This document shows positions 2,592-52,681 of a stretch of 64,000 nucleotides of DNA, in pieces. Position 1 is the stretch's first letter. The number at the start of each line of letters is the position of its first letter. The DNA lies in the NCBI GenBank assembly GCA_964600295.1, contig CAZRIY010000001.1:91282-155281 (forward strand), in the 5' to 3' direction. The stretch is from an uncultured Candidatus Saccharibacteria bacterium (GTDB lineage Bacteria > Patescibacteriota > Saccharimonadia > CAZHVB01). The notes below the pieces were generated by a model. The model was not told where the DNA came from, did no database searches, and was given only the letters and a program-made list of their open reading frames with translations. The position numbers were made by a program, and so were the translations under genes.

Positions 2592-2818
2592 GCTTTATCT
2601 TCTTCCCGACGATTCCAATCATTTAGCGAGTTCAAACTCATGATGTATGTATCATTTAATTTGATCTGGTTTTTTCTGTTAGATTTAGCGGGCGTTATAC
2701 GAATTTCGCCAATACTTACTTCTAACTCCACGTCAGGACCAAGCCCACTAGTCTCCAGAAGCGGCTTAGGAATGCGTATACCTCGAGAATTACCGATAGT
2801 TACAACCTTGGTTCTCAT
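2573..2818 (-). CDS. mazE: Type II antitoxin, AbrB/MazE/SpoVT family
   Basis: The N-terminal VVTIGNSRGIRIPKPLLE swapped-hairpin motif is present, and the gene sits immediately upstream of, and overlapping, the MazF-like toxin. Confidence 0.65.
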   Translation of the reverse strand: MRTKVVTIGNSRGIRIPKPLLETSGLGPDVELEVSIGEIRITPAKSNRKNQIKLNDTYIMSLNSLNDWNRREEDKAWAHLQ

Positions 2819-3000
2819 AGTAATTACATTGTATATACATTAGCTTCAACTGGCAATTGATCTTAACTGAAGGGAATAAAGGTTAGATGTAAGAGACTCG
2901 GATGTTAAAGCTTTGCGACGATTTGTCCCTTAGCTTAGAAAAGAAATACCCCCGCGACAATCTTTCACGGAGGTAAAATCTACAAACGGTTGTCTAACTA

Positions 3001-3507
3001 CTACCGACTATCGATACAGGAACCTTGGCCGCGCTCCTGGTACGTTACAACCGCGAATTGGCGTGCGGTTCCTGGGGTCCGTGTAAATCCGGTTCCACAT
3101 ATCTGAGCCGGGAAGTAGTACATGGTGCCTGCTGTAGGCGCTGTGATTCCACTAAGCGTAGTGTTAACGTTATAGTTTGTGCCGGTGCCCGGGTCTGCCC
3201 AGGTGGCACCACCTGCCAGCATATACTGCGCACGGAAACCGGTCGCACTTGCATCGTTGTATTGGGCTGCAGTCGGGATATTACCGTTGTTATTGCTGGC
3301 AAATTGGTTAACTGCCGCCAGCGTGCGGCTGGCGTCATTCTTGCGCGCGGTATCGCGCCTCGAAGCCTGAGCAGCGCTAACGGCCACAAAGACGATAACG
3401 AAAATTAGCCCGGCAATGGCCAGGACAATCACGATTTCAATCAGGGTAAAGCCTTGATTGCCATCTTTCTTAAACAGCTTCTGGAACCATTCCTTGAGTT
3501 TTTGCAT
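3001..3507 (-). CDS. pilA: Type IV major pilin (PilA-like)
   Basis: An 18-aa leader precedes G|FTLIEIVIVLAIAGLIF. The protein is 168 aa with a Thr/Gly/Asn-rich C-terminus and two Cys, and it lies between pilC and mazE. Confidence 0.75.
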   Translation of the reverse strand: MQKLKEWFQKLFKKDGNQGFTLIEIVIVLAIAGLIFVIVFVAVSAAQASRRDTARKNDASRTLAAVNQFASNNNGNIPTAAQYNDASATGFRAQYMLAGGATWADPGTGTNYNVNTTLSGITAPTAGTMYYFPAQICGTGFTRTPGTARQFAVVTYQERGQGSCIDSR

Positions 3508-3582
3508 TTGATTCGGTCTCCTCCTAAATTCTATATTGCTTATGTTTAATAATATTAGCCTCTACCCCCAACGTCAACCCCG

Positions 3583-4827
3583 TTATTGAGGCGGCGGCGC
3601 GCCACCACCACTGGCTCCGCCGAGATCGAAGTTGATTAGGCCATAGACTGGCAGTAGGATAGCGGCCACAATGACACCGACAGTAACGCCCAAAAATACC
3701 ATCAATATCGGTTCTATAGTGGTAGACATGTTTTTGGTGGCGTTATCCAACTCCTCTTCATAAAACTGAGCGGTTTTGGACATCATAGCGTCGACAGTGC
3801 CGGACTGTTCACCGATTTTTAGCATTTGGGGTACTAGAGCCAGAAAGGTCGGCTCTACTTCCAGCGCGATCGATAGGGCCTTGCCACCCTTCACTTTGTC
3901 GGCTGCTCTTTGCATGGCTTCATCCAGATGAACATTGTTCATAGAACCCCCTACGATGCGCAGCATCTCCAGCATCGGCAGACCGCTGGCCAGTAACACG
4001 CTGCTGGTGCGGCAAAAACGAGCCATATAGAGCTTTTTGAACAGTTTGCCGAAGAGGGGCAATCGTAACTTTAGCCGATCGGCAATCCGTTTGCCGCCAA
4101 GAGTGCGGAAATAACGTATCAAGGCAATACCACCACCAATTAGGATAATCAGAATCAACCACCAAAAGCTCTTCACAAAGTTGGCCACGGCTAGCAGAAT
4201 GGCGGTCAGAAACGGTAAATCTTTGCCCAAATCCTGATAAAGCTGCGAGATTTGGGGCAGGACTGTGGTTAGCATGAATAGCAGTACCAATGTAATCACT
4301 ACCAAGACAATGACGGGGTAAATCATGGCCCCGCGGATTTTGGAAATTAGCGCGTGGTCTTTTTCCTGTTGATCGGCGATACGAGCTAGCGATTTATCCA
4401 AGCTACCCGAAGCCTCACCGGCGGCAATCAGATTAACATAGATGGTGTTGAAAACTTTGGGATGCTTACCTAAGGCATCGGCTAGCGCCGTGCCGCCTTC
4501 GATGTCGGTAATGACCTGATTAACGATCGTCAGCAGCATTTTATTATCAATTTGTTCGCGGACTGTGCGCAGGCTCTGGGCCAAGGGCAGGCCGGCGTTA
4601 ATCAGAGTGGATAACTGACGGCTGAACAGCACTAGTTGCTTGGCGCCGACCCGATTGGTAATAAAACCAAACATGGCACTACCCTTATCTTTAGGCTCTA
4701 TAGTGATTGGAAACAGATCCTGGCTAATTAAGAGCTTGGCGGCTGAGCTCTCGCTATCGGCTTGGACTTCGGCTTTAACCGTCTGACCATCAAGATTATT
4801 CTTGGCGGTGTAAACAAAGGTAATCAT
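3583..4827 (-). CDS. pilC: Type IV pilus assembly platform protein PilC (GspF family)
   Basis: The 414-aa product has two GspF-type repeats with three TM segments and the typical N-terminal MITFVYTAKN...GQTVKAEV. Confidence 0.9.
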   Translation of the reverse strand: MITFVYTAKNNLDGQTVKAEVQADSESSAAKLLISQDLFPITIEPKDKGSAMFGFITNRVGAKQLVLFSRQLSTLINAGLPLAQSLRTVREQIDNKMLLTIVNQVITDIEGGTALADALGKHPKVFNTIYVNLIAAGEASGSLDKSLARIADQQEKDHALISKIRGAMIYPVIVLVVITLVLLFMLTTVLPQISQLYQDLGKDLPFLTAILLAVANFVKSFWWLILIILIGGGIALIRYFRTLGGKRIADRLKLRLPLFGKLFKKLYMARFCRTSSVLLASGLPMLEMLRIVGGSMNNVHLDEAMQRAADKVKGGKALSIALEVEPTFLALVPQMLKIGEQSGTVDAMMSKTAQFYEEELDNATKNMSTTIEPILMVFLGVTVGVIVAAILLPVYGLINFDLGGASGGGAPPPQ

Positions 4828-4952
4828 TTGATTACCTTTTTAAGATACAAACTACAAGATACAAGTAACAAATTTCCCTTGAGCATGTGGGATGTGGGGT
4901 TTGGTGCCTGGTTGTATCCTTGTTTCTTAGTCATTGTTTCTTGCCCTTCGGG

Positions 4953-6026
4953 CTAGCCTCGCATCAGCCGTTCTAGCTCTTCTAGATCGAGCGCGTAATC
5001 TTTGGCTTCTTCGTAAGTAATAACTCCGCTATGGATGAGGGCCACCAAGGCTCGGTCCATTGATTGCATGCCTTTTTCGGCCCCGGTCTGGATTACCGCA
5101 TCCAGTTGATGAGTTTTGGCCTCGCGGATAATATTGCGCACGGCCGAGGTCACCACCAAAACTTCAGTGGCCGGTACTCGCCCGCCGCCGATCATCGGAA
5201 TCAAGCGCTGGGAGCAAACCCCCTGCAGAATAGAAGCCAATTGAACCCGGATTTGCTGCTGCTGGTGGGGCGGAAAGACATCTACCATGCGGTCGATCGA
5301 TTGGGCAGCCGAATTGGTGTGCAGAGTGGCCAGTACTAAGTGGCCAGTCTCAGCAATGGTAATGGCGGCGGCGATAGTTTCTAGATCACGCATCTCGCCA
5401 ATCAGCACTACGTCGGGGTCTTGGCGGAGGCTAGAACGCAGAGCCGAGGCAAAAGAGTAAGTGTCATAGTGGACTTCGCGCTGGACCACCATGGCTTTTT
5501 TGCTTTTATGGGTATATTCGATGGGATCCTCGATGGTAACAATATGAACGGCTTTTTGGTCATTGATCTTATCGATCATGGCGGCCAGCGTTGTGGATTT
5601 ACCGCTACCGGTAGGACCAGTCACCAGTACCAGACCGCGGGGGTACCCCGTAAAGGTTTCGATGACTTTTGGCAGCTTAAGATCTTCAAGGGTACGAATC
5701 TGGTTGGGAATTAGCCGTAGCGCCGCGGCTAGATTGCCACGTTCGTGGAAAGCGTTGACGCGGAAGCGGGCTTCATCACCAAAGGCAAAGGAAAAGTCGA
5801 ATTCTTTGTCCTTGAGCAGCATTTGTTTTTGCTCTTCGTCCAAAATTGAGAAAATTAGTTGTTCAGCAGTCTCCTCTGTTAGGGCAGGTGAATTCTCGAA
5901 CGGAATGAGCTTACCGTCGACCCGCAGGGTTGGCGGTAAACCGACTTGGAGATGAATATCCGAAGCCTTACGATTAACGACTTGTTCTAATAAAACTTCA
6001 ATCCTAGTTGGTCCGGCAGCTGCCAT
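4953..6026 (-). CDS. pilT: Twitching-motility retraction ATPase PilT
   Basis: The 357-aa product has a Walker A (GPTGSGKSTT), Asp and His boxes and a PilT-length C-terminus. Confidence 0.88.
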   Translation of the reverse strand: MAAAGPTRIEVLLEQVVNRKASDIHLQVGLPPTLRVDGKLIPFENSPALTEETAEQLIFSILDEEQKQMLLKDKEFDFSFAFGDEARFRVNAFHERGNLAAALRLIPNQIRTLEDLKLPKVIETFTGYPRGLVLVTGPTGSGKSTTLAAMIDKINDQKAVHIVTIEDPIEYTHKSKKAMVVQREVHYDTYSFASALRSSLRQDPDVVLIGEMRDLETIAAAITIAETGHLVLATLHTNSAAQSIDRMVDVFPPHQQQQIRVQLASILQGVCSQRLIPMIGGGRVPATEVLVVTSAVRNIIREAKTHQLDAVIQTGAEKGMQSMDRALVALIHSGVITYEEAKDYALDLEELERLMRG

Positions 6027-7798
6027 TACGTCCTCGCGTCCGCCGCTACCCGTTCGACTTCATCTAAGGTCGTAAAACCGGTTAGAGCCTTAAGATAACC
6101 GTCTTCTTGCATGGTTAGCATGCCTTCGGCACGGGCTTGAGCTTCCACCTGACCAGAGGTAGCATGTTGGGTTAATAGTTTTTCTAAGCTATCACTCATA
6201 TTAAAAACCTCGAAGACACCTACTCTGCCGCGGTATCCATTTGGGCATTCTTCACTGTCTTTACCCTTAAATAAAGTATAAGCGTTTTGATCGGACAAGG
6301 GCAAGTTACCGTAGCCATATTCTTTAGCCAGGCGGGGAACATCGGCCTGGTTCTTGGGCAGTAATCTACTAACTTTCTTCTTGATGGCTTGGGTTTGGGT
6401 GGGTGTGCTTTGGAGCGTTTCGTGATCTTTACAGATACGCCTAACCAGACGCTGGGCCATGATAGTATTAACGGTCGAAGCAATCAAAAAGGGTTCTATG
6501 CCCATGTCCAACAAGCGGGGCAAAACACCGGCCGCCGAATTGGTGTGCAAGGTTGAGAGTACCAAATGCCCGGTCAGGGCGGCTTGCACCGCCAAGGTGG
6601 CGGTTTCGTTATCGCGGATCTCACCGACAAGTACGATATCGGGGTCTTGGCGCAAGACCGAGCGCAAACCCGAAGCAAAGGTTAAACCCACCGGCGGATT
6701 AATCTGGATCTGGTTAACACCAGAGATTTTGCGTTCCACTGGATCCTCGAGGGTGACGATATTGATGGTTTCGTCTTTAATCATCTGCAAAATGGTATAG
6801 AGTGTGGATGATTTGCCCGAGCCGGTCGGCCCGGTGGACAGAATCATACCGTGAGGTCGTTTGGAGCCCTCTTGCACCAAGGACAGTGAATGACCGCGCA
6901 AGCCAAGGTCGGCTAGGCTCAGATCCTGATCCTCCTTACTGAGCAGCCGCATCACTACCTGCTCACCCCAGACTACTGGAGATATGGCTACCCTAATATC
7001 AATTTCCTTGCTGGCCGAGGAAATATGGAATTGGCCGTCTTGGGGAACTCGGTGTTCATCAATCTTCATTGCAGACAGAATTTTGACCCGCGATATCAGC
7101 GCCGGTTCGCTGCCTTTGGGTAAGGTCATAATTTCGCGCAACAGGCCGTCGACTCGGACTCGGATGCGAACTTCGTGCTCGGTGGGCTCGATGTGGACAT
7201 CTGAGGCACCGGCCTGGACGGCATAGTCCAAAATGGCCTTGAGCGCCCGGGTAATCGGCGAATCTTGCACCAAGTTGGCTACGGCTTGAGCACTAGTGGT
7301 ACTATCCAAGTCTTTGGGCGTTAAATCGATTCCGCTTATTACGCTGCGCATATCTCCGACATCGGGTTTATAGTGGGCCAGGATACGCTCAATACCGACC
7401 TGGGAGGCCATAAAGACCACAACCGGTCGGCCAATTTTACCGGAAATATAATCAATCGCCTGGATATTGGTAGGATCGAGCATTCCCACCGCCAGCTTGC
7501 CCTCCATATCACCCAATGGTACGGCCTTGTACTGTTGGGCCAAATCTATGGGTAGGGACTTCAAGATCTCCGGTTTGACTGAGGCCTTTTGGAGATTAAC
7601 GTAGGGCACGTTGGTGGCCCTAGCAATCAGCTTGGTTAGCTCCTCGGGATCTATCAGTTTTTTTTCGGTAACTAGGGTCAACAAGGACTTATCGGACTTG
7701 GCGGCCTCGACTTTTAGTTGCTCAAGCTGTGCCTTAGTAACGGCTTTCTTTTCAACCAACCAATCTTCGACTCGGCTCTGGCTCTCGACGGACAGCAC
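6026..7798 (-). CDS. pilB: Type IV pilus extension ATPase PilB (GspE family)
   Basis: The 590-aa product has an N-terminal GSPII_E_N-like domain, a Walker A (GPTGSGKSST) and a tetracysteine region. It uses a GTG start with a GGAGG RBS 9 nt upstream. Confidence 0.9.
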   Translation of the reverse strand: MLSVESQSRVEDWLVEKKAVTKAQLEQLKVEAAKSDKSLLTLVTEKKLIDPEELTKLIARATNVPYVNLQKASVKPEILKSLPIDLAQQYKAVPLGDMEGKLAVGMLDPTNIQAIDYISGKIGRPVVVFMASQVGIERILAHYKPDVGDMRSVISGIDLTPKDLDSTTSAQAVANLVQDSPITRALKAILDYAVQAGASDVHIEPTEHEVRIRVRVDGLLREIMTLPKGSEPALISRVKILSAMKIDEHRVPQDGQFHISSASKEIDIRVAISPVVWGEQVVMRLLSKEDQDLSLADLGLRGHSLSLVQEGSKRPHGMILSTGPTGSGKSSTLYTILQMIKDETINIVTLEDPVERKISGVNQIQINPPVGLTFASGLRSVLRQDPDIVLVGEIRDNETATLAVQAALTGHLVLSTLHTNSAAGVLPRLLDMGIEPFLIASTVNTIMAQRLVRRICKDHETLQSTPTQTQAIKKKVSRLLPKNQADVPRLAKEYGYGNLPLSDQNAYTLFKGKDSEECPNGYRGRVGVFEVFNMSDSLEKLLTQHATSGQVEAQARAEGMLTMQEDGYLKALTGFTTLDEVERVAADART

Positions 7799-7818
7799 CT
7801 AGTCCAAACCTCCAGTTT

Positions 7819-7890
<72 letters not shown>

Positions 7891-7897
7891 TTATGTC

Positions 7898-8164
7898 TTA
7901 TTCGGGGCGGAAAGGATTAGTATTGCCAAAACCCTGACTGAAATCAAAGCTCGGAGAGGAAAAACTGGCGGCTTGGAAACGGTTGTTCCGACCGAGCAGG
8001 ATCTGGCGGGCGGCATCATCAAAATTCGGGTCGATTGGCTGGACAACCTCAATGCTGGCCGTGCGGGCTTTGCCACCGCGGCCAAAACGGCTGACTAGGA
8101 AGGAGCCCAGCGCAACCAGCACAATGCCCAGCACCACTAGAGCCAAAATATCTTTAGTTTTCAT
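7898..8164 (-). CDS. Small membrane-anchored hypothetical protein in the pilus operon (position expected for PilP)
   Basis: The 88-aa product has one N-terminal TM segment (ILALVVLGIVLVALGSFLV). It overlaps the pilO-like stop by 11 nt and is therefore operonic. Confidence 0.4.
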   Translation of the reverse strand: MKTKDILALVVLGIVLVALGSFLVSRFGRGGKARTASIEVVQPIDPNFDDAARQILLGRNNRFQAASFSSPSFDFSQGFGNTNPFRPE

Positions 8165-8789
8165 TTATTTCCTCCGTTTGATCACCAATTTGGGTTAGCG
8201 GCTGCCAATAAGTAGTAAGGGTGACGGATAGGGTTAGCGATGGTTCGCTGCCGCTAAAAGTTAAGGTGTTAAGCCGGATCGGCCGCTTGGAATTCTCCAG
8301 GTTGGTCAGCAGTTGTTGCAACGAGACGTACGTACCGTTGGCGCTTAGCTGAAATACCACCTCTTGGGAGGTGGCTACGCCGCTAGCCATTGGCTGCTCG
8401 CCAGCAACAGCTACTTGAGGGGAGAGCGATTGTAGTTGGACGCCAACTAGCGTGGCGGCGGCTTCTAGTTCGGCTGTCAGCCCTGCGTAATCAGGCGAAT
8501 TCGGTAGCGCCCTAAAGATATCAAAGACCGGCGGACCATTGTCTTCCAGAAACTTAAAGTTCTCCTGAAGTTTGGGTATAGCAGCCACGTTTTCCTCCAG
8601 GGTGTTTTTGGCCGCGTTTTTGCGCGAAATCACCTTATTATTAAAGCCGATATCGCCCAGCCAAGTCTTGGACAGCACAATGCTAATAGCTACCACCAGG
8701 GTGGTCAGGCTCATCAGACCAGCAATTAATCGGTTATTAGTGAGGGTTACTTTGGGATGTAGCAAATGCATCTTCTTCAGCTTAGCCAT
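8154..8789 (-). CDS. pilO: PilO-like pilus assembly protein
   Basis: The 211-aa product has a single N-terminal TM segment followed by a coiled-coil. It sits in the pilM-pilN-pilO position, overlapping the pilN stop. Confidence 0.55.
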   Translation of the reverse strand: MAKLKKMHLLHPKVTLTNNRLIAGLMSLTTLVVAISIVLSKTWLGDIGFNNKVISRKNAAKNTLEENVAAIPKLQENFKFLEDNGPPVFDIFRALPNSPDYAGLTAELEAAATLVGVQLQSLSPQVAVAGEQPMASGVATSQEVVFQLSANGTYVSLQQLLTNLENSKRPIRLNTLTFSGSEPSLTLSVTLTTYWQPLTQIGDQTEEINEN

Positions 8790-9387
8790 TGGGTTCTCCG
8801 TCGATTAGCCTGGCATCAAAGCTGGCCTTGATGGTGAAGTTGACCTCGGAGCCAGACGGTCCACTGGCATTTTCCAGTACCACGCTGGTGAAATAGCCCC
8901 TGATTTGGGGATCATCTTCAACCCGATTGGGATCTTGCAAATCACCAGCAACTAGTAAGGCCCGATAAAGCCTGTCAACTCCGGCATAGCTGGGAGAAAC
9001 TCCGGATAGGGTTAGGCCGCCGCTGGTATCTATTTCGATGTTAGATAACCGGATCTCGGCGGGCAAAACGCTGGGCAAGAAGGCCATTAGCTCTGATACT
9101 ACTAGCCGCTGTTCATAGAGGGATGGCAAAGAGGATAAATGATCTTTAACCGTTAACATGGTGGTGATATTGGGGGTACTCTGCAGTGTGGCTTTGTGCT
9201 GATCAATCCGGTCCTGGGTGCGATTCAGCAATAAGGCTTGGCTGCCTTTGATGGCCAATAACAACACCGGAACGCCGATGGCCACAGCCATAATGATGCT
9301 AGAGATAACAATCGATAACTTGCGGGCGCGTTGGGCGCGCAGACGTACCTGTTTACTGTCTGGTAGCAAGTTTACTTGCTTAACCAT
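8782..9387 (-). CDS. pilN: PilN-like pilus assembly protein
   Basis: The product starts MVKQVNLLPD, the conserved PilN N-terminal motif, then has one TM segment. It lies downstream of pilM. Confidence 0.7.
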   Translation of the reverse strand: MVKQVNLLPDSKQVRLRAQRARKLSIVISSIIMAVAIGVPVLLLAIKGSQALLLNRTQDRIDQHKATLQSTPNITTMLTVKDHLSSLPSLYEQRLVVSELMAFLPSVLPAEIRLSNIEIDTSGGLTLSGVSPSYAGVDRLYRALLVAGDLQDPNRVEDDPQIRGYFTSVVLENASGPSGSEVNFTIKASFDARLIDGEPNG

Positions 9388-9573
9388 GTATCACCTCCCT
9401 GCGGTCGGTGCAATTTCTAATTTCTAAATGGTTCGGCAGGCTCTCCATCCTGAGCACAGGCGAAGGACAAGCACCAATTCCCAATAAACCAACCCCTAAA
9501 CAGTTTGAAATTTGGGATTTTATAAATTGGGATTTGTTTAGGATTTCGGATTTAGACATTAGAGTTTCCTTCA

Positions 9574-10629
9574 TCATTGTCGCTCCCTTAGCGCCAAGCC
9601 GCAAGCTACGGCAAACTGGTTGGACAACTCGGCCAGCTGCCCGGATATGCCGGATCGGCTGCCAATCTTAGCCCACGCATCCCCAATTTCCACCGGCAAA
9701 CCAACGCTGTTGGCCAAATGGGCTGGAAATTCCGGCATCATACCCGCCTTGCCGGTCAATATAATTTTGCTCACTTTGGTGCCTTTGTAATGACCTTCAA
9801 AAAACTTGGTGGATTTATCAATTTCCGACATCAGGGTATCAACGCTTCCCTTGATGGCTTTTCTAACTTGGCTCTCCATCTTTTGAGCTAGACCGAACTT
9901 ATAAACGAATTGGTAGGCCTGATCGGGTTCTAGATTCAGCCCTTGGGCGGCGGCCTTAACAAAATTATTACCGCCGACTGGGATGGAACGAATCATTTTG
10001 AGCGAATGGCCAGCCACTGTTACCAAATCGGTGGCGGTTTCGCCAACGTCCAGCACCGTCACAGCACCGGCTTCTTGGGGTTTAACCAGAGCGCGGGCCA
10101 AAGCGATGGCATCGGGTTCCAGCGCCAAGACCTCTAGATCGGCGGCTTCCAGCACAGCGAGTGTGCGCTCCGACAGACCAATTGGCACGGCTACAATTAG
10201 GACTTCTTGCTGTTTGCCATCTGCGGATTCACCGGCTAGCATCCAGTCCAATTTAACTTTATCTAGCGCCATCGGCACATGCTGTTCGGCTTGGTAGCGA
10301 ATGCCCTTTTCTAGCTCCGAGGGCGCCATTTTGGGTAGACTAATCAATGCCGAGAAAACCTTGGCCGAGGGCAGGCCGGAGACCACATTCTTGGTGGTTA
10401 CCCGGCTATCACTAATGAGTTTTTTGATAGCTTCGACCACCGATTGGCGATCTACTGGGGAATCGCTGGCCATGACTTTGGCTTCCATGGGTACCCAACC
10501 ATAGGTTACCAACTGAGCGCTAGCGCCACTCTTTCTGACTTGAACTAAACGAATACCTGAGGAACCAATATCTAAACCAATTATATTATTGTCGGTTTTA
10601 AACAACGCCATTATCTCCAAGTTTATCAT
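9574..10629 (-). CDS. pilM: Type IV pilus assembly protein PilM (actin-like ATPase fold)
   Basis: The 351-aa product contains IIGLDIGSSGIRLVQV and two actin-like subdomains. A GGAG RBS precedes the start. Confidence 0.85.
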   Translation of the reverse strand: MINLEIMALFKTDNNIIGLDIGSSGIRLVQVRKSGASAQLVTYGWVPMEAKVMASDSPVDRQSVVEAIKKLISDSRVTTKNVVSGLPSAKVFSALISLPKMAPSELEKGIRYQAEQHVPMALDKVKLDWMLAGESADGKQQEVLIVAVPIGLSERTLAVLEAADLEVLALEPDAIALARALVKPQEAGAVTVLDVGETATDLVTVAGHSLKMIRSIPVGGNNFVKAAAQGLNLEPDQAYQFVYKFGLAQKMESQVRKAIKGSVDTLMSEIDKSTKFFEGHYKGTKVSKIILTGKAGMMPEFPAHLANSVGLPVEIGDAWAKIGSRSGISGQLAELSNQFAVACGLALRERQ

Positions 10630-10873: not shown

Positions 10874-11746
10874 TTATAGCGGCTCGCTGTCCAAGTTGGT
10901 CTTTTGCTCAGTTTCCGCCCCTTGGTAGCAATCATTCTGCAGCTGGCTCTCAAGAGAGCTGCATAACACGCGGGCCCTAGCAAGGTCATGCCCGGTATAA
11001 AACATAAGGCCCTCACCCATGGCCTGCAGACACATGCCAATTAAGCTTTGTTCTTGGGTATTTAAGATGCTTTCGCATACTCGAGGAAGCGAAGACTGCA
11101 AATCAGACAGGGATTGTCCAAGGTAATTGTTCATATTTTCCATGAAAACTCCGCCAAGACAGGTCTCCTGATGGAAATCGTCAGGCAACTGTCGGCACAA
11201 CCCTACCACTGACTCGAGTTGGCTGAGCTGGTGTCGCAATAGCCCATGACCGACACCGTGGATGCATTGACGGCGGCGCAGCCAATCCGTTCCAATTGAC
11301 GAACAAAGCTCCGGAACCTCACTAATAATTTGGTCAGTGCTCCTGGTTTCTGCATAGCTCTCCATAACCCCGTGGAAGCAACCTTCGATGCATCCAAGTG
11401 GACAGGTTACAAAGGCTTGGGCAGTATTGTTCCGATATTTTTCAAAATTGGTGTGGCCAACTTGGTGAGCAATCAGATGACAATCATCAACTATATGCTG
11501 TTTGCGAAACTGCTGAGCTTGGGTGATGGCAGCTTCGGCTGAATCCTGCATGGTTAGCTTGGAAAAATACGGCAAGAGGCAGGCTGAACGCTGATATGCT
11601 TGAGCCATTGCCAGGCAATCCGCCGGAATCTCTACTAAGTTATTGTTAGCTTCTTTTTTACCAGTAAAAACCATCCCTATAAGCAAAGTTAATAGTAAGA
11701 GTAATCCTATCCAGATATTCTGTTGCTTATAGAAAGGTCTAATCAT
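10874..11746 (-). CDS. Secreted or membrane-anchored Cys/His-rich protein, paralog A, function unknown
   Basis: An N-terminal TM or signal segment is present. The motifs are CHLIAHQVGH, CPLGCIEGCFHGV, QCIHGVGHGLL and CLGGVFMEN, with the same threefold C..C-[YF]HG repeat as the ORFs at 14892 and 16060. Confidence 0.6.
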   Translation of the reverse strand: MIRPFYKQQNIWIGLLLLLTLLIGMVFTGKKEANNNLVEIPADCLAMAQAYQRSACLLPYFSKLTMQDSAEAAITQAQQFRKQHIVDDCHLIAHQVGHTNFEKYRNNTAQAFVTCPLGCIEGCFHGVMESYAETRSTDQIISEVPELCSSIGTDWLRRRQCIHGVGHGLLRHQLSQLESVVGLCRQLPDDFHQETCLGGVFMENMNNYLGQSLSDLQSSLPRVCESILNTQEQSLIGMCLQAMGEGLMFYTGHDLARARVLCSSLESQLQNDCYQGAETEQKTNLDSEPL

Positions 11747-11775: not shown

Positions 11776-14700
11776 CTAGAACACCGGCGGGCGTTCAGAT
11801 TGAGAACGGATCTGGGTGGTAACGCTACCCAATCCAAGGGGTGGGCGCAACAGTAGTTGGGGTACGTAGTTAACGCACTCGGCTGCTTTGTTGCCCACTG
11901 GGCAATCCACGCCGTCAACTCCGGTGCGTACATCGCCAACCGTGCGGCGAAACTGAAAACTGCTGGCCACCAGGGCTCCTTGGACGGTCAAGGGTTGGCC
12001 GCAAGCGGCAGCACCCACGGCAGTGCCAATAGCTATGCCAGTCGGGTCTTGGCAGGTGTTGATAACGCCGCTGCTGCCCGTGCTGCCAGCATAATAAATA
12101 CCGTAGAGGTTTGTGACTATGGGCGAGATATTGATACCCCCGCGGGAAATTACGCCGAAAGAGGGAATGGTATCCCGCCTGAAAGGAAAGCTAGCTGAGA
12201 TATTGCCAACAATTTGTACCGTACCCCCCACTACGAACGTAGTTCTTTTTCCAACTGGTAGGATGCCGCCTAAAATCGTCAGATCACCGTTATATTTGAA
12301 GATACCATCAGGTAGACTGGGGTCGCTAAGATTAACTACACCTGGCGCTGCGAATGGACCTGGATAATCGGCTACAGTGCTGTCAGGAGCGAGGTAGCGG
12401 GCAGCCAGATCCAGTCGGCAGACGCGGCCATAGCCGCCGTGGGGCGAGCTGCGACTGCCAAATTTTAGGCTCAAATCAGTAGGTGAAGTTACAGAGCCGG
12501 CGGAACCAAAGTTATTGATATTGGCCCCGGCTGAAACTACAAAGCTGGCCCTGGAGCCGCGTAGGTCTTGGACACGGCCGCGGACGCTACCGCTACCGGG
12601 GACCAGGCAGGGTGCGCCAAAGTTGGCCCCGGCTTGGACGCTGCCACCCAGGGTGGATAGAACCGGTTTGCGAGAGATTACTACTTTTAGGCACCGAGGT
12701 GTAGGGTCTATGTATTCGGCATTGCTATCGCTATTAGGACTGGCAAAGGCCTGAAAGCAAATGGCCCCAATGTCATCGGAGTCTACAGCGCCATTGAAGT
12801 TGCTATCTAAATAGGTAGGGGCCGTAGGGCTGACGGTAAAGGTGAAAGACACATCTCTTCTACCGCCCGCGGGTAAGTCCGGATAGTGCCAGTGATAACA
12901 AGGGGCCCTGGGGCCACAATCTAGATTATAACCAAAGCTATCGGCCGGCGGCGAAGAAGTGTTGTTGGGTGTCAATGGTGCGGTGGTATACGCGCTGTTT
13001 TGATTCTGCACCCGTAAATACACCGGTAGAGAAGTTGATGCTCCTAAATTTTCTAGCCGTGCATTTATGGTGTAGGGGTTGCCCGGCTCCACCGTGGTAA
13101 AGATGGTTGAGCCATTGGGCGCCAGTCCTTCGGGCAATACATCGCCCTGATTATCAAACGGGGGTGGTAGGGGTGTGGGATAAGCATAGGGTGTGCCGTA
13201 GGCATAGGGTGTGCCGTAGGCATAGGGTGTGCCGTAGGGATAGGGTGTGCCGTAGGGATAGGGTGTGCCGTAGGCATAGGGTGTGCCGTAGACAATGGGT
13301 TCCAGAAAAATGCGGTCTTTGACATTAGGATCCCCATAATTCTCTGACTGGTAAGCACCAAAATAGCTAGAAAAATACGCACCCAGATCATCAATCGACC
13401 TGGTGCGACCGTTTTCGAGTGGTAGATTGCGATAAGCTATAGAATTAAAATTTGGCGCACCGATATCGAAATTCCAGGTAACAAAGCAGTTTAAGCCAGT
13501 GCCGCCGGCATTACCGGAAGGTTCTCCCACCTTAAACCAGTTTGCACTGCGATAGATAGCAGCACCATATTTGCCGCAGGGGTCCGTATTACCTGGAGGT
13601 GGCCCACCTTGATTCGGCGTAACCCAAAAATCATAGATCGCTGGATTTGGCCATACGCCGCTACCAACCCACGCGGTTACGGCCGCCATGGGGTGCTGCG
13701 TACAATGGTCGGGCCCGTGAGTAGCTTTAACTTTGGCTGGCAGCCAAAAGCTCTGCAGCTTGCTTGAGATCTGCTTGAAGATGCGGCTGGTTGTTCGCAG
13801 GGCCTGCCCAACTAATTCCTTGGCTGCCTTTTGTCGCTCTTGGACTAGATATTCCTTTATATAAATTTTGGTGGTCTTTTCCTTTTTGACTGATTCTAGA
13901 AAACCCCTCCAATCTGAATATTGTCCGGTTGTCTTTGCAAGTAACCGGTAAATGGCGTAATAGCCACCGTCGGAGCGAATTAACCCTGTGTGAGAACCAA
14001 TTTCTTGAAGCTGGGCCATTTTTTCCCATTCCTTCATATCCATTAAGTGCAGCGCGGCAGTCTTGGCATTCATACCGGTATCGCCTACCCTATCTACCAC
14101 AAACGAACTCGATTGAGGATCTTTTTGAATCTGCTCAATCTTGCGCGTTATTTCGTCTTGAGAGGCACCATTCTCAAATAGCGGCAGCAGGTCGGATTCC
14201 ACTTTTTGTTTGGCTACAGAATCCCATTCGTCATCGGGATGGGCATCGGAAGCACGCATATCCCATCGGACATAAACACCAAAAAGCGAGCGGCTATCGA
14301 TTAGCACGCTTTCTAACTTGACTCTGAATAGTTGGCTGCGCTCGATGCGCTTTATCAACGCGGCGTCCCAATTCCGACCACTCTGTAAATTAACCTTGGC
14401 CAGGAAAGCGGCTTCGTTGCCGTCGGCCTTGATTAATTCCTGGTAGCGTTGTTCAACTTCTTCGGTGCTAACCGCAATCCCATGTTTAGTGGCTTCATCC
14501 TCTAGAGCCTTTTCCATAATCAGGAAATCTAGAGCATGGAGGTTCAGGGCGAAGAATGGACCGGTATCCTGGTCGTCTTCGGTGCCGGCCAAAAAGCTAA
14601 GTTTAGGCTTGAAGGCTTCATATTCGGCCACGGTAATCTCTTTGCCTCGAACCTCGGCCGCGATCCCGGCTCTCAGTTTGGGGTTCGTAAAGAAATTGCT

Positions 14701-14832
14701 AAGACGAGGCAAAACTGTGTAAGTTGAAAAAATTAGAGCCGCTAATGCCAGGACAAAAATAGCTGCAATAATTCCCAGGCGTAATGGGTAGGCAAGCTTG
14801 CTAAATTTTACCCTTAGTTTTGAAGGCCGCAT
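11776..14832 (-). CDS. Large surface protein with a SurA/PpiD-like N-terminal chaperone-like region, a (YGTPY[AP])n repeat and Cys-containing beta-rich C-terminal domains
   Basis: The 1018-aa product has an N-terminal signal-anchor. Residues ~60-350 are alpha-helical and resemble the SurA N-terminus. The central and C-terminal parts are Gly/Asn/Ser/Thr-rich with paired Cys. Confidence 0.65.
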   Translation of the reverse strand: MRPSKLRVKFSKLAYPLRLGIIAAIFVLALAALIFSTYTVLPRLSNFFTNPKLRAGIAAEVRGKEITVAEYEAFKPKLSFLAGTEDDQDTGPFFALNLHALDFLIMEKALEDEATKHGIAVSTEEVEQRYQELIKADGNEAAFLAKVNLQSGRNWDAALIKRIERSQLFRVKLESVLIDSRSLFGVYVRWDMRASDAHPDDEWDSVAKQKVESDLLPLFENGASQDEITRKIEQIQKDPQSSSFVVDRVGDTGMNAKTAALHLMDMKEWEKMAQLQEIGSHTGLIRSDGGYYAIYRLLAKTTGQYSDWRGFLESVKKEKTTKIYIKEYLVQERQKAAKELVGQALRTTSRIFKQISSKLQSFWLPAKVKATHGPDHCTQHPMAAVTAWVGSGVWPNPAIYDFWVTPNQGGPPPGNTDPCGKYGAAIYRSANWFKVGEPSGNAGGTGLNCFVTWNFDIGAPNFNSIAYRNLPLENGRTRSIDDLGAYFSSYFGAYQSENYGDPNVKDRIFLEPIVYGTPYAYGTPYPYGTPYPYGTPYAYGTPYAYGTPYAYPTPLPPPFDNQGDVLPEGLAPNGSTIFTTVEPGNPYTINARLENLGASTSLPVYLRVQNQNSAYTTAPLTPNNTSSPPADSFGYNLDCGPRAPCYHWHYPDLPAGGRRDVSFTFTVSPTAPTYLDSNFNGAVDSDDIGAICFQAFASPNSDSNAEYIDPTPRCLKVVISRKPVLSTLGGSVQAGANFGAPCLVPGSGSVRGRVQDLRGSRASFVVSAGANINNFGSAGSVTSPTDLSLKFGSRSSPHGGYGRVCRLDLAARYLAPDSTVADYPGPFAAPGVVNLSDPSLPDGIFKYNGDLTILGGILPVGKRTTFVVGGTVQIVGNISASFPFRRDTIPSFGVISRGGINISPIVTNLYGIYYAGSTGSSGVINTCQDPTGIAIGTAVGAAACGQPLTVQGALVASSFQFRRTVGDVRTGVDGVDCPVGNKAAECVNYVPQLLLRPPLGLGSVTTQIRSQSERPPVF
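13184..13291. repeat. Near-perfect 18-bp tandem repeat (6 units) inside the surface-protein gene
   Basis: The unit GCATAGGGTGTGCCGTAG (variant GGATAGGGTGTGCCGTAG) is repeated six times and encodes YGTPYA/YGTPYP on the minus strand. Confidence 0.9.
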
Positions 14833-14891: not shown

Positions 14892-16046
14892 TCAGCCACC
14901 GAACCTTTTGCAAGGCTGGCGTTGGTTGGCATCAGCTTCATGAATGCGATCACAGGCTGCTTGCTGCTCTTCTTGGCTAGTTGTGTAAATCGAAATAACC
15001 GCGCTTAAGTGTTGATAACACTTCGACTTGTCTAAATCCGTAAGTTGAGCGCACATCTCATATGGCATTGATCGGTCACCCACCGAAAAGGCCGCTTTTA
15101 CGATAGTTATGTAACAAAAGACACGCCAATCCGCCGGTAGGTTATCGCACAGGCTAATGACTTTGGGTGTCTGGTTTTCTGTTAACGGGTGGATTTGGTT
15201 CGATAAACCATAAAAACAACTTTCTTTATCAACTTCAGGCGCAACTCCCAGACAGATCTGGCCAATTTTTACTAGATCACCGAAGTAACGTTGATATAAT
15301 ATTTGCGGCTGATTGTTCCAACAAGGCTTGGTGTATTCGGGTTTTAGACGCGTGTCATTGCAGGGATAGCTATCATCACCCGGTTTAACCCATCTGTCTG
15401 GTGAGGGCGCTCCGCTATGCAATCCCCAAACGTTTTCCATAAAGGCGCCGTCGAGACAGTTGTAGAGGGGAAAGCTGGGAATATTTGCACCCAATTTGTC
15501 GCATTGTTCAAGCCCCTTAGTTAGGTTGGCATAGCCAACAGCCGCCACATAACCGTGGCCAATACCGTGGGCACAGGAAAGCGGTACTCCCGGTCCTTCC
15601 TTTTGACAATGTTCGATAATTTTCTTGATATCAACCATGTCATTATCGGCTTCGCCGGAAATAACGTGCAGCAGCAGACCGTGGTAACAAGATTCCAAAA
15701 AATAAGTGCGGCAGAGCGTAATACCCTCCACGCCGTGTTTCTCATATATATAATCCCCGGCTGTATGATTTAACAGATGCGTTTCACCAGTAAAGGGCAA
15801 GCCGGAGCGAAATAGTTGCTCTTGGGCTTCAACCGGTCCTACGCGTTCTAAAAGTAGCCGGTAAAATTTTATCCGCTCCTGTTTGTTGTTGGTTGCCAAA
15901 ATATTTTGAATTTCCTGGCTGGTACCCTGTCCTGATTGTTCTGGCTGAAGCCTTACCCACATATTTAGACCGATAATTACAGCGATTAGCGCCAAGATAA
16001 CGCCTAATTGCCACCTATATTTAAGTGCCTGCTTTATGACGCCCAT
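14892..16046 (-). CDS. Secreted Cys/His-rich protein, paralog B, function unknown
   Basis: The motifs are HLLNHTAGDYIY, CRTYFLESCYHGL, SCAHGIGHGYV and NCLDGAFMENV. The ORF table starts it at 16085, overlapping the upstream gene. An ATG at 16044-16046 has a GGTGA RBS and leaves 13 nt after the upstream TAA, so 16046 is the preferred start. Confidence 0.55.
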   Translation of the reverse strand: MGVIKQALKYRWQLGVILALIAVIIGLNMWVRLQPEQSGQGTSQEIQNILATNNKQERIKFYRLLLERVGPVEAQEQLFRSGLPFTGETHLLNHTAGDYIYEKHGVEGITLCRTYFLESCYHGLLLHVISGEADNDMVDIKKIIEHCQKEGPGVPLSCAHGIGHGYVAAVGYANLTKGLEQCDKLGANIPSFPLYNCLDGAFMENVWGLHSGAPSPDRWVKPGDDSYPCNDTRLKPEYTKPCWNNQPQILYQRYFGDLVKIGQICLGVAPEVDKESCFYGLSNQIHPLTENQTPKVISLCDNLPADWRVFCYITIVKAAFSVGDRSMPYEMCAQLTDLDKSKCYQHLSAVISIYTTSQEEQQAACDRIHEADANQRQPCKRFGG

Positions 16047-16059
16047 TGTACTTTTCACC

Positions 16060-17568
16060 TTATCTACCCTCCCGGCTCTTAACAATATCGACTATTCGGA
16101 GGCATTCGATAACCTTGTCCTCTTGGTTGATTGCCCGGCATATCTTTTGTGCATTATCCCACCAACCATTATAGGCTTGGAAGACTATAGCATCCGCCGC
16201 CTCGGTTAAGCACCATTCGTTCCCCTGCTGGTACGGAGATGATTGGCATAAATTGATAATTGAATCGGTATTTTCTTTACTCGCCCCACCGGCTTGTGAA
16301 CCAGTGCCACGGAAGCAATGCTCTTCTAATATTGGAGCTGGAGCTTGAGAACAAAGCTTGATACTTTGGGTTAAATCGTGGCCGATGGATTGCAGCCTAA
16401 TGGGCTGCCAACGGCCGCAAGCCTCATGATAAATGGAGCTTAATTCCCGACAGAGTTTCCATGAGTCGTTGGCATCTACTGCGGTTGCGCCGAGCGACGT
16501 GGCTTGTTCCATAAATACCCCATCATAGCAATATTTTCGATGCTCTGGTTTCATCCGATCGCAGGCGACTAGCGCGGGTTTGAGCTCAAGGTTGTGTATA
16601 GTTAGTACCCCATGGCCAACACCGTGGTAACAGCTAGGTGCCTGGTCGGCTGGCAACGCTTTGGTACAAGCCTGTTCAATTTCCGTTACAGCTCTTTCGC
16701 CAAGACCGTTTATAGCCTCCTCTGATACGCCATGATAACAGCCATAGGCGAACTCTCTATCGCAAATTTCGACACCCGAGACACCTGATCTGCGGTAGGC
16801 GGCATTGCCAACTATGTGGGCAAGTTCGTGGCCATTTGCGATAGCTTGGTCCTCCACCAGAAAGGCTTTTTTTAGATACTCCCACGCTCCTCTTGGATTC
16901 TGTTGAGCGTATGTTTGCAGTAAATCGAGTTGTCCTTTATAGTCCAGGCTTCGAAATTCCTCGATCGGCGGGAGATTTTTTTTACCAATTTTTGGCAACC
17001 AATTTCCAAATGCTGACCATAACCTCCCAAACATTCCATGTTTGGTTCCGCCAACCTCTATGACCATGATGTGCCCTGGTGACAGGTGATCGTGCATTCC
17101 CCAGCTGCCGAGTTTCTCAAATTTAAAACTGTAGGTTTCGGCCGGTTTTAGATTGCGGCAAGCATCCAATTGGCTGCCTAAGCAGCCCTTCTCATCGGAA
17201 GGATAGACGGTGTGGGTGGGATGATTGTTAGAAGCTGGCCAGACCTCAGACTTTGATTGGTTAGTAAAGACCACGGTTTGCCCGGGTTTAATGGCCAGCC
17301 TGTTGGGTCTAAAGCCGTCGTCGGTCATAGCCACCGCTACTGAACCATCTGGCCGCAATGAATCTTGATGGGACCAGCCCACAATTAGCACTCCGCCCAA
17401 CATAATTAGACCAATGAGCAGCTTGAGTTTGGACAGTCGCCCCAACCGACTCTTTATTTTAACCCTCAATCTTGACCACACATAAGTAATTCTAAAGAAA
17501 GTGGTTAGTGACTTACAACCATCTACTGTTTGATACTGGTGAACTCCTTTGTTTTGTCGGCGCCCCAA
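16060..17568 (-). CDS. Membrane-anchored cupredoxin-like domain fused to a Cys/His-rich domain (paralog C, with HExxH)
   Basis: A TM segment spans residues ~47-65. Residues ~82-172 read IKPGQTVVFTN...HPTH...ETYSFKFEKLGSWGMHDHLSPGHIMVIEV, a cupredoxin-like pattern. The remaining motifs are GHELAHIVGNAAY, CDREFAYGCYHGV, SCYHGVGHGVL and YCYDGVFMEQ. Which Met is the true start is uncertain. Confidence 0.55.
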   Translation of the reverse strand: MGRRQNKGVHQYQTVDGCKSLTTFFRITYVWSRLRVKIKSRLGRLSKLKLLIGLIMLGGVLIVGWSHQDSLRPDGSVAVAMTDDGFRPNRLAIKPGQTVVFTNQSKSEVWPASNNHPTHTVYPSDEKGCLGSQLDACRNLKPAETYSFKFEKLGSWGMHDHLSPGHIMVIEVGGTKHGMFGRLWSAFGNWLPKIGKKNLPPIEEFRSLDYKGQLDLLQTYAQQNPRGAWEYLKKAFLVEDQAIANGHELAHIVGNAAYRRSGVSGVEICDREFAYGCYHGVSEEAINGLGERAVTEIEQACTKALPADQAPSCYHGVGHGVLTIHNLELKPALVACDRMKPEHRKYCYDGVFMEQATSLGATAVDANDSWKLCRELSSIYHEACGRWQPIRLQSIGHDLTQSIKLCSQAPAPILEEHCFRGTGSQAGGASKENTDSIINLCQSSPYQQGNEWCLTEAADAIVFQAYNGWWDNAQKICRAINQEDKVIECLRIVDIVKSREGR

Positions 17569-17976: not shown

Positions 17977-19665
17977 TTGAGCATGAATATTCTAGGGATA
18001 TCGGCTTTTTTCCACGATAGTGCGGCGGCTTTGATAGTAGATGGCCGAGTGGTATGTGCCTTTGAGGAAGAACGCTTTAGCCGCATCAAACACGACAATC
18101 AATTCCCGGTATTAAGTATCCAGCACTGTCTCGATACTGGAGGCCTCTCAGTCAATGATATCGACAGCGTTGTCTATTATGAGAAACCTTTACTAAAGTT
18201 AGAACGCATTTTAGATACCTTTATTCAAACATTTCCTCGTTCGTTGCGCCCATTTGTGGCAAATATGCCCGAAATATTAATTCATAAACTCGACATCGCC
18301 TACACTTTACGCAAAACGATTGGGTTCAGAGGCCAGATATTCTATCTCCCGCACCACTTGTCTCACGCTGCGGCTGCTTTTCTAACATCATCATTTAAAG
18401 AGTCCGCGATATTGACAGTAGATGGTACGGGCGAGTACCAAACAACTGCTCTGTGGGCCGGCAACTCTAGGAGAATAACTGAGCTAGGGTCACTAAATTT
18501 TCCCCATTCTTTGGGTTTGTTCTACTCGACTTTCACTGCTTTTTTGGGCTTTCGGGTTAATGACGACGAGTATAAAGTTATGGGCCTGTCGGCTTACGGT
18601 AAGCCAAGTTTTGTATCCGATATGCGGAGGCTAATAGACATGGCGGCAGACGGTAGCCTGCGTCTCAATATGGACTACTTTGGATTCCAACACTCGGAGC
18701 AAATGTGGGCCCCGGCTTTTGAAAAACTGTTTGGTAGAGCCCGCGCGCGCGGCGACCCAATGACTAAACACCATAAAGATATAGCGGCTAGCGTTCAGGC
18801 TCTGTTTGAGGAGATATATTTTCGAATTCTTAACCATCTCCAGACCCTTACCAACAGCTCCGACCTCTGCCTGGGGGGTGGGGTGGCCTTAAATGCACTA
18901 GCCAATGGCAAAATCTATACTCATACAAAATTCAAACGTGTACACATATTCGGAGCAGCTGGCGATAGTGGTTCGGCGATTGGAGCGGCACTCTACATGT
19001 ATCACCAATTAAATCAGTCCGGCTGGCCGAAGCCAATTACTGGCATGGCGTTGGGGTCAAGTTACAAAGACGCCGAGATTGAAGACTGCTTAGGACAAAC
19101 CCAGCTTAAGTGGGAAAGGGTAGCTCCGAAAAAACTCATTGCCAAAACCGCACAACTCTTGGCGAACGGCAAGGTAGTAGGATGGTTTCAAGGCAAGATG
19201 GAGTTCGGGCCACGCGCACTTGGGTATCGCTCAATCCTGGCAGACCCGCGGCCAGCAGCCATGAAGTCAAAGATTAATAGGATTAAGGGCCGCGAAGCAT
19301 TCCGCCCATTCGGGGGATCCATTATAGATACTGCGACGAATTTATACCTCGAAGCTCCCGGGGGCCTAGTATCACCTTTTATGATTGAGTGTTTCAGAGT
19401 TCGAAGTGCAAAAAAAGATAGTCTGGCTGCGATCACACACTATGATGGCAGTTGCCGCATCCAAACCGTTACGCCCCAAAACGAACGATTTTATCAGTTA
19501 ATCAACGCGTTTAGAGATTTAACTGGTACACCTTGTTTGCTCAATACCAGCTTTAATGTTGCCGGGGAGCCGATGGTAGAACATCCCAGCCAAGCCCTGG
19601 AAGTCTTTGCAACTACGACTTTGGATTATCTCGTAATCGGAAATTTTATGGTGCGCAAGGAATAA
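17977..19665 (+). CDS. Carbamoyltransferase (NodU/CmcH family)
   Basis: The N-terminus is MSMNILGISAFFHDSAAALIVDGRVVCAFEEERFSRIKHDNQFP. The 562-aa product has a Kae1/TsaD-like N-domain and a carbamoyltransferase C-domain. Confidence 0.85.
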   Translation: MSMNILGISAFFHDSAAALIVDGRVVCAFEEERFSRIKHDNQFPVLSIQHCLDTGGLSVNDIDSVVYYEKPLLKLERILDTFIQTFPRSLRPFVANMPEILIHKLDIAYTLRKTIGFRGQIFYLPHHLSHAAAAFLTSSFKESAILTVDGTGEYQTTALWAGNSRRITELGSLNFPHSLGLFYSTFTAFLGFRVNDDEYKVMGLSAYGKPSFVSDMRRLIDMAADGSLRLNMDYFGFQHSEQMWAPAFEKLFGRARARGDPMTKHHKDIAASVQALFEEIYFRILNHLQTLTNSSDLCLGGGVALNALANGKIYTHTKFKRVHIFGAAGDSGSAIGAALYMYHQLNQSGWPKPITGMALGSSYKDAEIEDCLGQTQLKWERVAPKKLIAKTAQLLANGKVVGWFQGKMEFGPRALGYRSILADPRPAAMKSKINRIKGREAFRPFGGSIIDTATNLYLEAPGGLVSPFMIECFRVRSAKKDSLAAITHYDGSCRIQTVTPQNERFYQLINAFRDLTGTPCLLNTSFNVAGEPMVEHPSQALEVFATTTLDYLVIGNFMVRKE

Positions 19666-20563
19666 GCTTTTGGGCAATTAGGTAATCCGCCATTTCTCTG
19701 GCAATGATTTCGTGACCCCGAGTGTTTGGGTGGCCGTCACCCTGAATGATTCCTCCGGAATCATTCAGGCTATCCTGGGATAGTTCGTAATAATAGGTTT
19801 GCGAACGGCCGTCGGCAAAGCTCTTGGCATATTGCTCCAAATTAGAAGCGCGTATATCAAACATTACTAAAGGCTGATTAAAATACTGGCTGGCCGCATG
19901 GAGTGTTTGTGTCTGAAACTGAATATTATCTGCCATAGAATATATATGAGGAGTTTCTTCCGAATCGTCGTGTGATTCTTGGTGATCTTTAAACGGGCGT
20001 GATTGATGATCGCGATCAATTTCGGCTCTTGTCACGAAATCGCTGTCATTAACTTGCCATATGACTAAATCGGGCTTATATTTTTGGCCGCGAAGCCGGT
20101 AGCGTTCAGCGCTATAAGCGATGTCGTAGCCGGGTACACCAAGATTGATGACTTCATATTTAGTAGCGCCCCGACAGGTATAGTTCAACAACTCCGCCAG
20201 TCGTTCTGAATAATTCTCGTTAGCACCTACGTATAAGCCAAAGGTGATTGAATCCCCAAGGCTGATGATTCTGAAGGTGTTGGCTGGTTTCACAACCGTA
20301 TAATCCTGTTGGGCATGCAGACTATCGGCATTGATGCGATACCTAAGATCGCGAACCTCTTTTTGGCCTGTAGCTTGATCGCTATTCGCCTGCAACTCAT
20401 AAAAATTAGCGAACTGGGAACTAGATGCGCTGGCCACGCTAGTTCTGGATATCGGGCTAACGCTTATGTGGGTCTGAAAACTATAATAGGCGTGTATCAC
20501 CAGCAGGGCGACAACAATCACCTCGAGGATAAAAATGTATCCTGTCAGCTCCGGTTTGCGCAT
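19646..20563 (-). CDS. SGNH/GDSL hydrolase family protein with an N-terminal TM anchor
   Basis: Block I is ISLGDSITFG, block III is VNDSD, and block V is DGHPNTRGH. Confidence 0.75.
   Translation of the reverse strand: MRKPELTGYIFILEVIVVALLVIHAYYSFQTHISVSPISRTSVASASSSQFANFYELQANSDQATGQKEVRDLRYRINADSLHAQQDYTVVKPANTFRIISLGDSITFGLYVGANENYSERLAELLNYTCRGATKYEVINLGVPGYDIAYSAERYRLRGQKYKPDLVIWQVNDSDFVTRAEIDRDHQSRPFKDHQESHDDSEETPHIYSMADNIQFQTQTLHAASQYFNQPLVMFDIRASNLEQYAKSFADGRSQTYYYELSQDSLNDSGGIIQGDGHPNTRGHEIIAREMADYLIAQKLIPCAP

Positions 20564-52591: not shown

Positions 52592-52681
<90 letters not shown>

Follow-up and report, generated by a model that had tools for sequence, protein, structure and literature searches.

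Paralogs of the window and the flagged motif

The DNA examined here is a 64,000-nucleotide stretch (the window) of contig CAZRIY010000001.1, derived from an uncultured Candidatus Saccharibacteria bacterium, and it encodes on its minus strand three paralogous proteins, A, B and C, which share a Cys/His-rich alpha-solenoid domain. These are exactly the three members found in the window by a local hmmsearch with the family hidden Markov model (HMM). They represent a large domain family centered on Patescibacteria, or the candidate phyla radiation (CPR), that has neither a Pfam or NCBIfam model nor a solved relative. Paralog C (16060..17568) is an open reading frame (ORF) of 502 amino acids (aa) starting from TTG. 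It consists of an N-terminal signal-anchor or transmembrane helix (17371..17439; RLSKLKLLIGLIMLGGVLIVGWS), seen both in the sequence and as helix 27-68 of the AlphaFold2 (AF2) model, a cupredoxin-fold domain (17050..17349, residues 74-173) and the Cys/His-rich solenoid domain (16063..16983, residues 196-502). In the public assembly C is called as a protein of 461 aa beginning at the TTG of residue 42 (MGRLSKLKLLIGL…), and this call sits on a Logan contig from run SRR6868922. The shorter call probably has the true start, since its signal-anchor N-terminus is more convincing, and the TTG of the longest ORF at 17568 is probably 41 codons too far upstream; residue numbers below are those of the 502-aa frame. 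Paralog B (14892..16085) is a 397-aa ORF, called publicly as 384 aa, with a signal anchor and a Cys/His solenoid, while paralog A (10874..11746) has 290 aa, with a signal anchor and a shorter Cys/His solenoid. The homolog search returned proteins identical to A and B (P0090 and P0132); no identical C was returned, and the best match of C had 52% identity.

The motif in question is HELAH of paralog C, which is indeed encoded on the minus strand at 16816-16830 (CAC GAA CTT GCC CAC, H247-E-L-A-H251) and likely corresponds to residues 206-210 of the true product. As an earlier note on this DNA had stated, the Glu is confined to C: the same column of the MAFFT alignment reads HLLNH in B (15765-15779) and HLIAH in A (11465-11479). 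The bare HExxH pattern is within chance: the long ORFs, 19,923 residues in all, contain it once, where 0.39 occurrences would be expected. The motif starts repeat helix A1 and is the first HxxxH of a ladder of His residues. In C it is followed by C277-Y-H279-G-V-S-E283 of repeat 2 (16720..16740), C313-Y-H315-G-V-G-H319-G of repeat 3 (16609..16632), which holds the second HxxxH, and D349-G-V-F-M353-E354 of repeat 4 (16507..16524). The equivalents in B are CYHG (15678-15689), CAHGIGHG (15552-15575) and GAFME (15435-15449), and those in A are CFHG (11369-11380), CIHGVGHG (11243-11266) and GVFME (11138-11152). Paralog A carries an extra Cys pair, C89/C119, at the positions equivalent to 246 and 273 of C.

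Conservation of the His5-Met-Glu core

Conservation was counted over 419 domain copies, among which all three subfamilies (the C, B and A types) are represented. The first His pair is practically invariant (H247 in 418 copies, H251 in 416) and is followed by G254 in 404 copies; the HxxxHxxG core is thus conserved far beyond chance. H279 is kept in 418 copies, H315 and H319 in every copy, M353 in 418 and E354 in 409. Position 248 is occupied by Leu in 178 copies (42%), Glu in 87 (21%), Asp in 68 (16%), Gln in 29 and by other residues (S, V, G, N, T, I, F, R, M, A or W) in the remaining 57. Variation is also found within the C-type alignment, where the 63 sequences (C and 62 homologs) have Glu in 36, Asp in 13, Gln in 8, Gly in 3 and Met, Thr or Asn in one each. 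The earlier note had offered as one of its two readings a metal-coordinating motif in which the Glu is dispensable, and an invariant His pair flanking so variable a second position fits that reading.

The three subfamilies have different signatures around the common core. C-type domains are characterized by E/D/Q248, E283 and D349, B-type domains by L248, L/I283 and D349, and A-type domains by L248, E275, E283, G349 and the extra disulfide. The Glu of repeat 2 is accordingly kept in the C and A types and replaced by Leu or Ile in the B type. The residues at 248 and 283 vary in concert. Of 184 copies having an acid or Gln at the first of these positions, 171 have E/D/Q283, and of 201 copies that are hydrophobic there, 174 have a non-acidic residue at 283. 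Comparison of the E/D/Q248 group with the hydrophobic-248 group yields many specificity-determining positions, which are confounded by phylogeny, and only the 248-283 coupling and a polar swap at 248, 275 and 312 were kept, as weak leads.

The suggestion that A and B are Glu-less pseudoenzymes does not agree with these patterns. H247, H251, H279, H315, H319, M353, E354 and the seven Cys pairs are common to all three paralogs, so that A and B lack none of the universal residues. The A-type motif reads H-[LIVWT]-x-A-H and that of the B type HLL[N/V/I]H, with Leu in 118 of 119 B-type motifs. Decay of A and B was therefore rejected, the B-type motif being more conserved than that of the C type, and the conserved Leu marks B as a distinct subfamily and not as a decayed enzyme. 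Judged from the alignments, each paralog has an intact His5-Met-Glu core that is constrained in its own way, and the three differ in the carboxylates around this core. They are probably differentiated in function, with a carboxylate-rich C type (E/D/Q248, E283, D349 and E354) and a carboxylate-poor B type (L248 and L/I283).

A predicted all-alpha, disulfide-stapled solenoid

The AF2 model of full-length C has a mean predicted local distance difference test score (pLDDT) of 86 and a predicted template modeling score (pTM) of 0.80 with the 63-sequence alignment. The Cys/His domain modeled alone with 134 sequences is all-alpha (pLDDT 96.5, pTM 0.93). The domain is composed of eight helix-hairpin repeats of approximately 35 residues, the last one incomplete. 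Within a unit, a long A helix is followed by a short B helix, and the Cys that ends the B helix has its partner approximately 8-12 residues further on in the next A helix, which gives seven conserved Cys pairs (269/277, 301/313, 336/347, 373/384, 406/418, 441/453 and 477/489). The repetition is also detected by profile-profile comparison (hhalign) of repeats 1-2 with repeats 3-4 (E 1.4e-5), which matches C277-Y-H279-G…E283-E284 to C347-Y-D349-G…M353-E354 and H251…G254 to H315…G318. Structural matches of the solenoid model are restricted to helical-repeat proteins. The Cys/His region has no Pfam or NCBIfam match at E<=10, and a profile search with the domain alignment gave no sequence relative in the PDB at the same threshold.

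Covariation was studied by mean-field direct coupling analysis (DCA) of 408 non-redundant domain copies, which recovered the Cys pairs 269-277, 441-453 and 477-489. The pairs between helices A1 and A2 are 246-273, 250-276 (the top pair overall), 251-279 and 255-283/284, those between A2 and A3 are 274-312, 280-316, 283-316 and 285-322, and those between A3 and A4 are 312-346/349 and 322-351/355. The contact pattern is alike in repeats 1-4 and 6-7, with A helices parallel and B helices antiparallel to their neighbors. Cys246 and Cys273 occur together in 51 of the 419 copies and are both missing from 367, with one ambiguous copy (Cys273 with a gap at 246), and the pair spans lineages with differing residues at 248. 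This perfect co-occurrence argues for direct contact beside H247 and is best explained by a disulfide that would tie the residue preceding H247 to the start of helix A2. From the DCA pairs and Cys246/Cys273 we infer two stacked rows across helices A1-A4, H251-H279-H315-D349 and N255-E283-H319-M353(E354), with H247 and E248 one turn above. The N-terminal hydrophobic anchors of A, B and C together with the covarying Cys pairs point to an extracytoplasmic location.

Cupredoxin domain and copper-module fusions

The N-terminal domain of C has the Greek-key beta-sandwich of the cupredoxin fold. Its putative site is non-canonical and Cys-less (W110PASNNH116PTH119 ... H159-D160-H161). The type-1 ligand set His-Cys-His-Met is missing, as Cys92 of amicyanin corresponds to an invariant Asp (D160), His95 to S163 and Met98 to H166 or Leu. 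The domain thus differs from amicyanin, plastocyanin and Cupredoxin_1 (PF13473) in having Asp for Cys and in not conserving the equivalents of His95 and Met98. The signature HWPASNxHPTH…HDH is common to every cupredoxin fused to the family, with Val replacing the His before WPAS in the C of this window, and the fused domains may form a distinct His-rich subclass of cupredoxins. Such fusion is usual in the C type and is also seen in B-type cases (P0239 and P0249). DCA between the His cluster of the cupredoxin and the ladder of the solenoid gave scattered pairs (139 sequences, effective number 133).

Every recognizable fusion partner of the family is a copper module; Cupredoxin_1 scores up to 67.5 bits, PF00127 Copper-bind 35 bits and CopC, in P0088, 52.5 bits. 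In the closest relative, moreover, the gene just upstream of the C ortholog encodes a canonical blue-copper protein (…YYCSPHPYM). The CopC/PcoC periplasmic copper chaperones, in which His/Met ligation is typical, are likewise extracytoplasmic, and CopC is fused to a distant member of the family (P0088). CopC is, however, a beta-sandwich unlike the solenoid, and the relationship is one of functional association only.

Family distribution and gene pairing

A profile search of 1.84 billion representatives, with the family representatives clustered at 50% identity, gave 7,915 matches at E<=1e-3 and 3,278 at E<=1e-30. The great majority of the sources, as judged from named records and 77 genome loci, belong to Patescibacteria/CPR. 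A few records are labeled Chloroflexota or Gemmatimonadota, and some metagenome-assembled genomes bear archaeal labels of uncertain reliability. Literature searches retrieved nothing on the family, which appears uncharacterized. Loci contain from one to nine family genes (2.7 on average), and the largest proteins have up to nine tandem domains (e.g., P0251 of 3,580 aa). C-type and B-type genes adjoin each other in this window and in three further loci (L001, L004 and L005). The two types are also fused in both orders, as C-B in P0007-P0017 and as B-C in P0177, P0196 and P0224. Adjacent genes and fusions in both orders are a standard line of evidence that C and B form a functional pair.

A putative metal site and the alternative explanations

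In the reading that we favor with moderate confidence, HELAH would be the first HxxxH of a ladder of metal ligands displayed on the parallel-stacked A helices of a disulfide-stapled extracytoplasmic alpha-solenoid, with copper as the most likely metal and Glu248 in an auxiliary role. The separate parts of this reading differ in strength: that the His ladder is a metal site is quite likely, while copper as its metal is a tentative assignment that falls somewhat short of probable. Five invariant His and the invariant Met-Glu could build one or two adjacent sites, and a plausible division is H247, H251 and H279 in one and E283, H315, H319, M353 and E354 in the other. All three paralogs probably bind metal because all of them keep the His5-Met-Glu core. 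Glu248 would be a lineage-specific addition, either in the second shell or as an extra carboxylate ligand, and together with E283 it would make the C-type site rich in carboxylates, whereas the B-type site with L248 and L/I283 would be hydrophobic. C and B probably act jointly, for example by sharing or passing metal between a hard-ligand and a soft-ligand site, and their division of labor might be that of Cu(II)-type and Cu(I)-type sites. Copper is favored because of the exclusive fusions to copper modules, the blue-copper gene next to the C ortholog, and an invariant Met that accompanies the His ligands, a set of ligands typical of periplasmic copper sites.

Several observations weigh against this reading. 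The DSSP assignments of both AlphaFold models show residues 247-268 and 272-304 as unbroken helices, while the covariation and the Cys246/Cys273 pair require hairpins that turn near 259 and 291, and the covariation signal is itself partly phylogenetic, there being three deep subfamilies. The fused cupredoxin domain has the type-1 Cys replaced by Asp and hence is no proof of copper, and a His/Glu site would suit Zn, Fe or Ni as well. Finally, Glu248 is strictly kept in all 18 of the closest homologs of C and hence has some importance within this clade.

The same 18 homologs could be cited for the proposal of the earlier note that C is a zincin zinc metalloprotease, with H247, H251 and a downstream ligand holding zinc, Glu248 acting as the general base, and A and B as its inactive relatives. 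Locally the resemblance to zincins, both the thermolysin-like gluzincins and the metzincins, is real: the HExxH of C is helical, an invariant Gly stands three residues past the second His (HELAHIVG), and the next stacked helix carries the conserved E283, 32 residues further on. The local sequence would presumably also satisfy PROSITE pattern PS00142. The proposal nevertheless fails because of the fold, the variability of the Glu and the outcome of all similarity searches. The structure prediction that had been suggested as a check gave a confident all-alpha solenoid with no zincin match, in which the mixed beta-sheet and the active-site helix above a substrate cleft are missing, and the catalytic Glu varies among orthologs, being present in 36 of the 63 C-type sequences. 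In HELAHIVGNAA a Gly is found at +3 but neither His nor Asp at +6, where a metzincin would have its third ligand. H279 and E283 might supply such a ligand from the next stacked helix, yet they are equally present in the Glu-less A. HMM, sequence and structure comparisons revealed no similarity to zincins, and not even at E<=10 did any peptidase family of Pfam or NCBIfam match. The HELAH domain is thus very probably not a zincin, and the protease reading with C as its catalytic member is hardly credible. Of the overall interpretation in the earlier note, the metal-coordinating branch and the differentiation of the paralogs stand and the zincin branch falls. A perfect HExxH in one paralog is here no protease signature, and pattern-based annotation would mislabel C. 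The underlying family merits biochemical attention even though the zincin idea is wrong.

A convergent metalloenzyme outside the zincins, either a hydrolase or a copper oxidase or oxygenase, is an unlikely alternative. The carboxylate-rich center of C would be the catalytic one, with its own cupredoxin domain possibly supplying electrons or metal, and B and A would be non-catalytic partners or chaperones. Consistent with this, E/D/Q248 is found in 90% of the C-type set and is coupled to E283, the B type swaps both positions for conserved hydrophobics, and cupredoxin fusion is usual for C-type domains. By analogy, the ligand arithmetic (HxxxH plus His, HxxxH plus Met/Glu, on stacked helices) might be compared with binuclear sites of helical bundles, and all-alpha His-rich metallohydrolases such as phospholipase C and P1 nuclease are known. 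On the other hand, some C-type homologs that are otherwise intact have Gly, Met or Thr at 248, the B-type domains P0239 and P0249 carry a cupredoxin as well, and neither a conserved substrate-related neighbor among the loci nor a structural match to any enzyme was found. Still less likely is a surface scaffold that binds no metal, in which the solenoid would bind a host or envelope ligand or a pilus component and the His, Glu and Met residues would line a ligand-binding groove or form a pH-sensitive switch. Five His and a Met-Glu that remain invariant over thousands of diverged sequences while the surrounding surface varies freely have the signature of a cofactor site and not of a binding surface that diversifies, and fusion exclusively to copper modules also argues against a mere scaffold.

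The metal-ladder reading may be extended to a bolder form, which we regard as improbable: the family would comprise unrecognized extracytoplasmic multinuclear copper proteins of CPR, in which the Cys-less cupredoxin and the His5-Met-Glu ladder form a redox or trafficking center and C and B are an obligate pair. If true, organisms whose redox metabolism is considered minimal would turn out to have a new system for acquiring copper or a new oxidase system. Copper binding by itself would give CPR episymbionts a sizeable, hitherto unannotated extracellular system of metal handling, and metal sites on a repeat scaffold would be a new structural solution.

Likeness to other repeat and metal proteins

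Among the closest known systems are the HEAT-like AlkD2 (6m9m) and YibA (1oyz) and the PC-repeat subunits of the proteasome. The scaffold of HEAT-like solenoids resembles that of the family, but none of their models match it. The Sel1-like proteins HcpB and HcpC of Helicobacter are similarly secreted and built of alpha/alpha hairpins of approximately 35 residues, with disulfides between Cys residues approximately 7-12 positions apart. However, the Hcp proteins lack a conserved His ladder and are not among the top structural matches of the C domain, and the Sel1 model has no match to the C domain at E<=10, so that repeat length and Cys-pair pattern are a resemblance only. Type-3 copper proteins (tyrosinase and hemocyanin) and the di-iron site of hemerythrin recall the HxxxH, HxxxE and HxxxH of the ladder with its five His and carboxylates. 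No relationship in fold or sequence to them was detected, and the solenoid family, unlike these proteins, has an invariant Met.

Genomic neighborhood

Divergently upstream of C lie genes for a carbamoyltransferase (17977-19665, plus strand) and a GDSL-family lipase (19646-20563, minus strand), and the window has a single tRNA at 52592-52678; no link of these three to the HELAH motif was found. Paralog A is directly followed on the same strand by a complete type IV pilus cluster (1384-10629, minus strand). It consists of genes for PilM (9574-10629), a PilN-like protein (8782-9387), PilO (8154-8789), PilB (6026-7798), PilT (4953-6026), PilC (3583-4827), a pilin with the N_methyl motif (3001-3507) and a prepilin peptidase (1384-2259). 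Pilus genes recur near homologs of the family (PilB in 8 of 78 loci, PilC in 6, pilins in 5), an apparent enrichment of modest size.

Between B and A a protein of 1018 aa is encoded (11776-14832, minus strand). Its N-terminus resembles SurA_N, its C-terminal part is large and unannotated, and a (YGTPYA)n Tyr/Pro repeat lies at approximately residues 512-555. A large DUF5667 protein that adjoins the C-B fusion in locus L002 also ends in Y-x-T-P repeats. Homology of the two proteins was rejected, the similarity being that of low-complexity Tyr/Pro repeats only. Literature searches on PF03640 (Lipoprotein_15, "secreted repeat of unknown function") retrieved nothing useful; a small secreted protein of this family is encoded beside family genes in at least 8 of 78 loci, for instance at 9594-10097 of L005, 10870-11370 of L006 and 11707-12213 of L023, and in five other loci. 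In 12 loci a large protein of approximately 900 aa is encoded immediately upstream.

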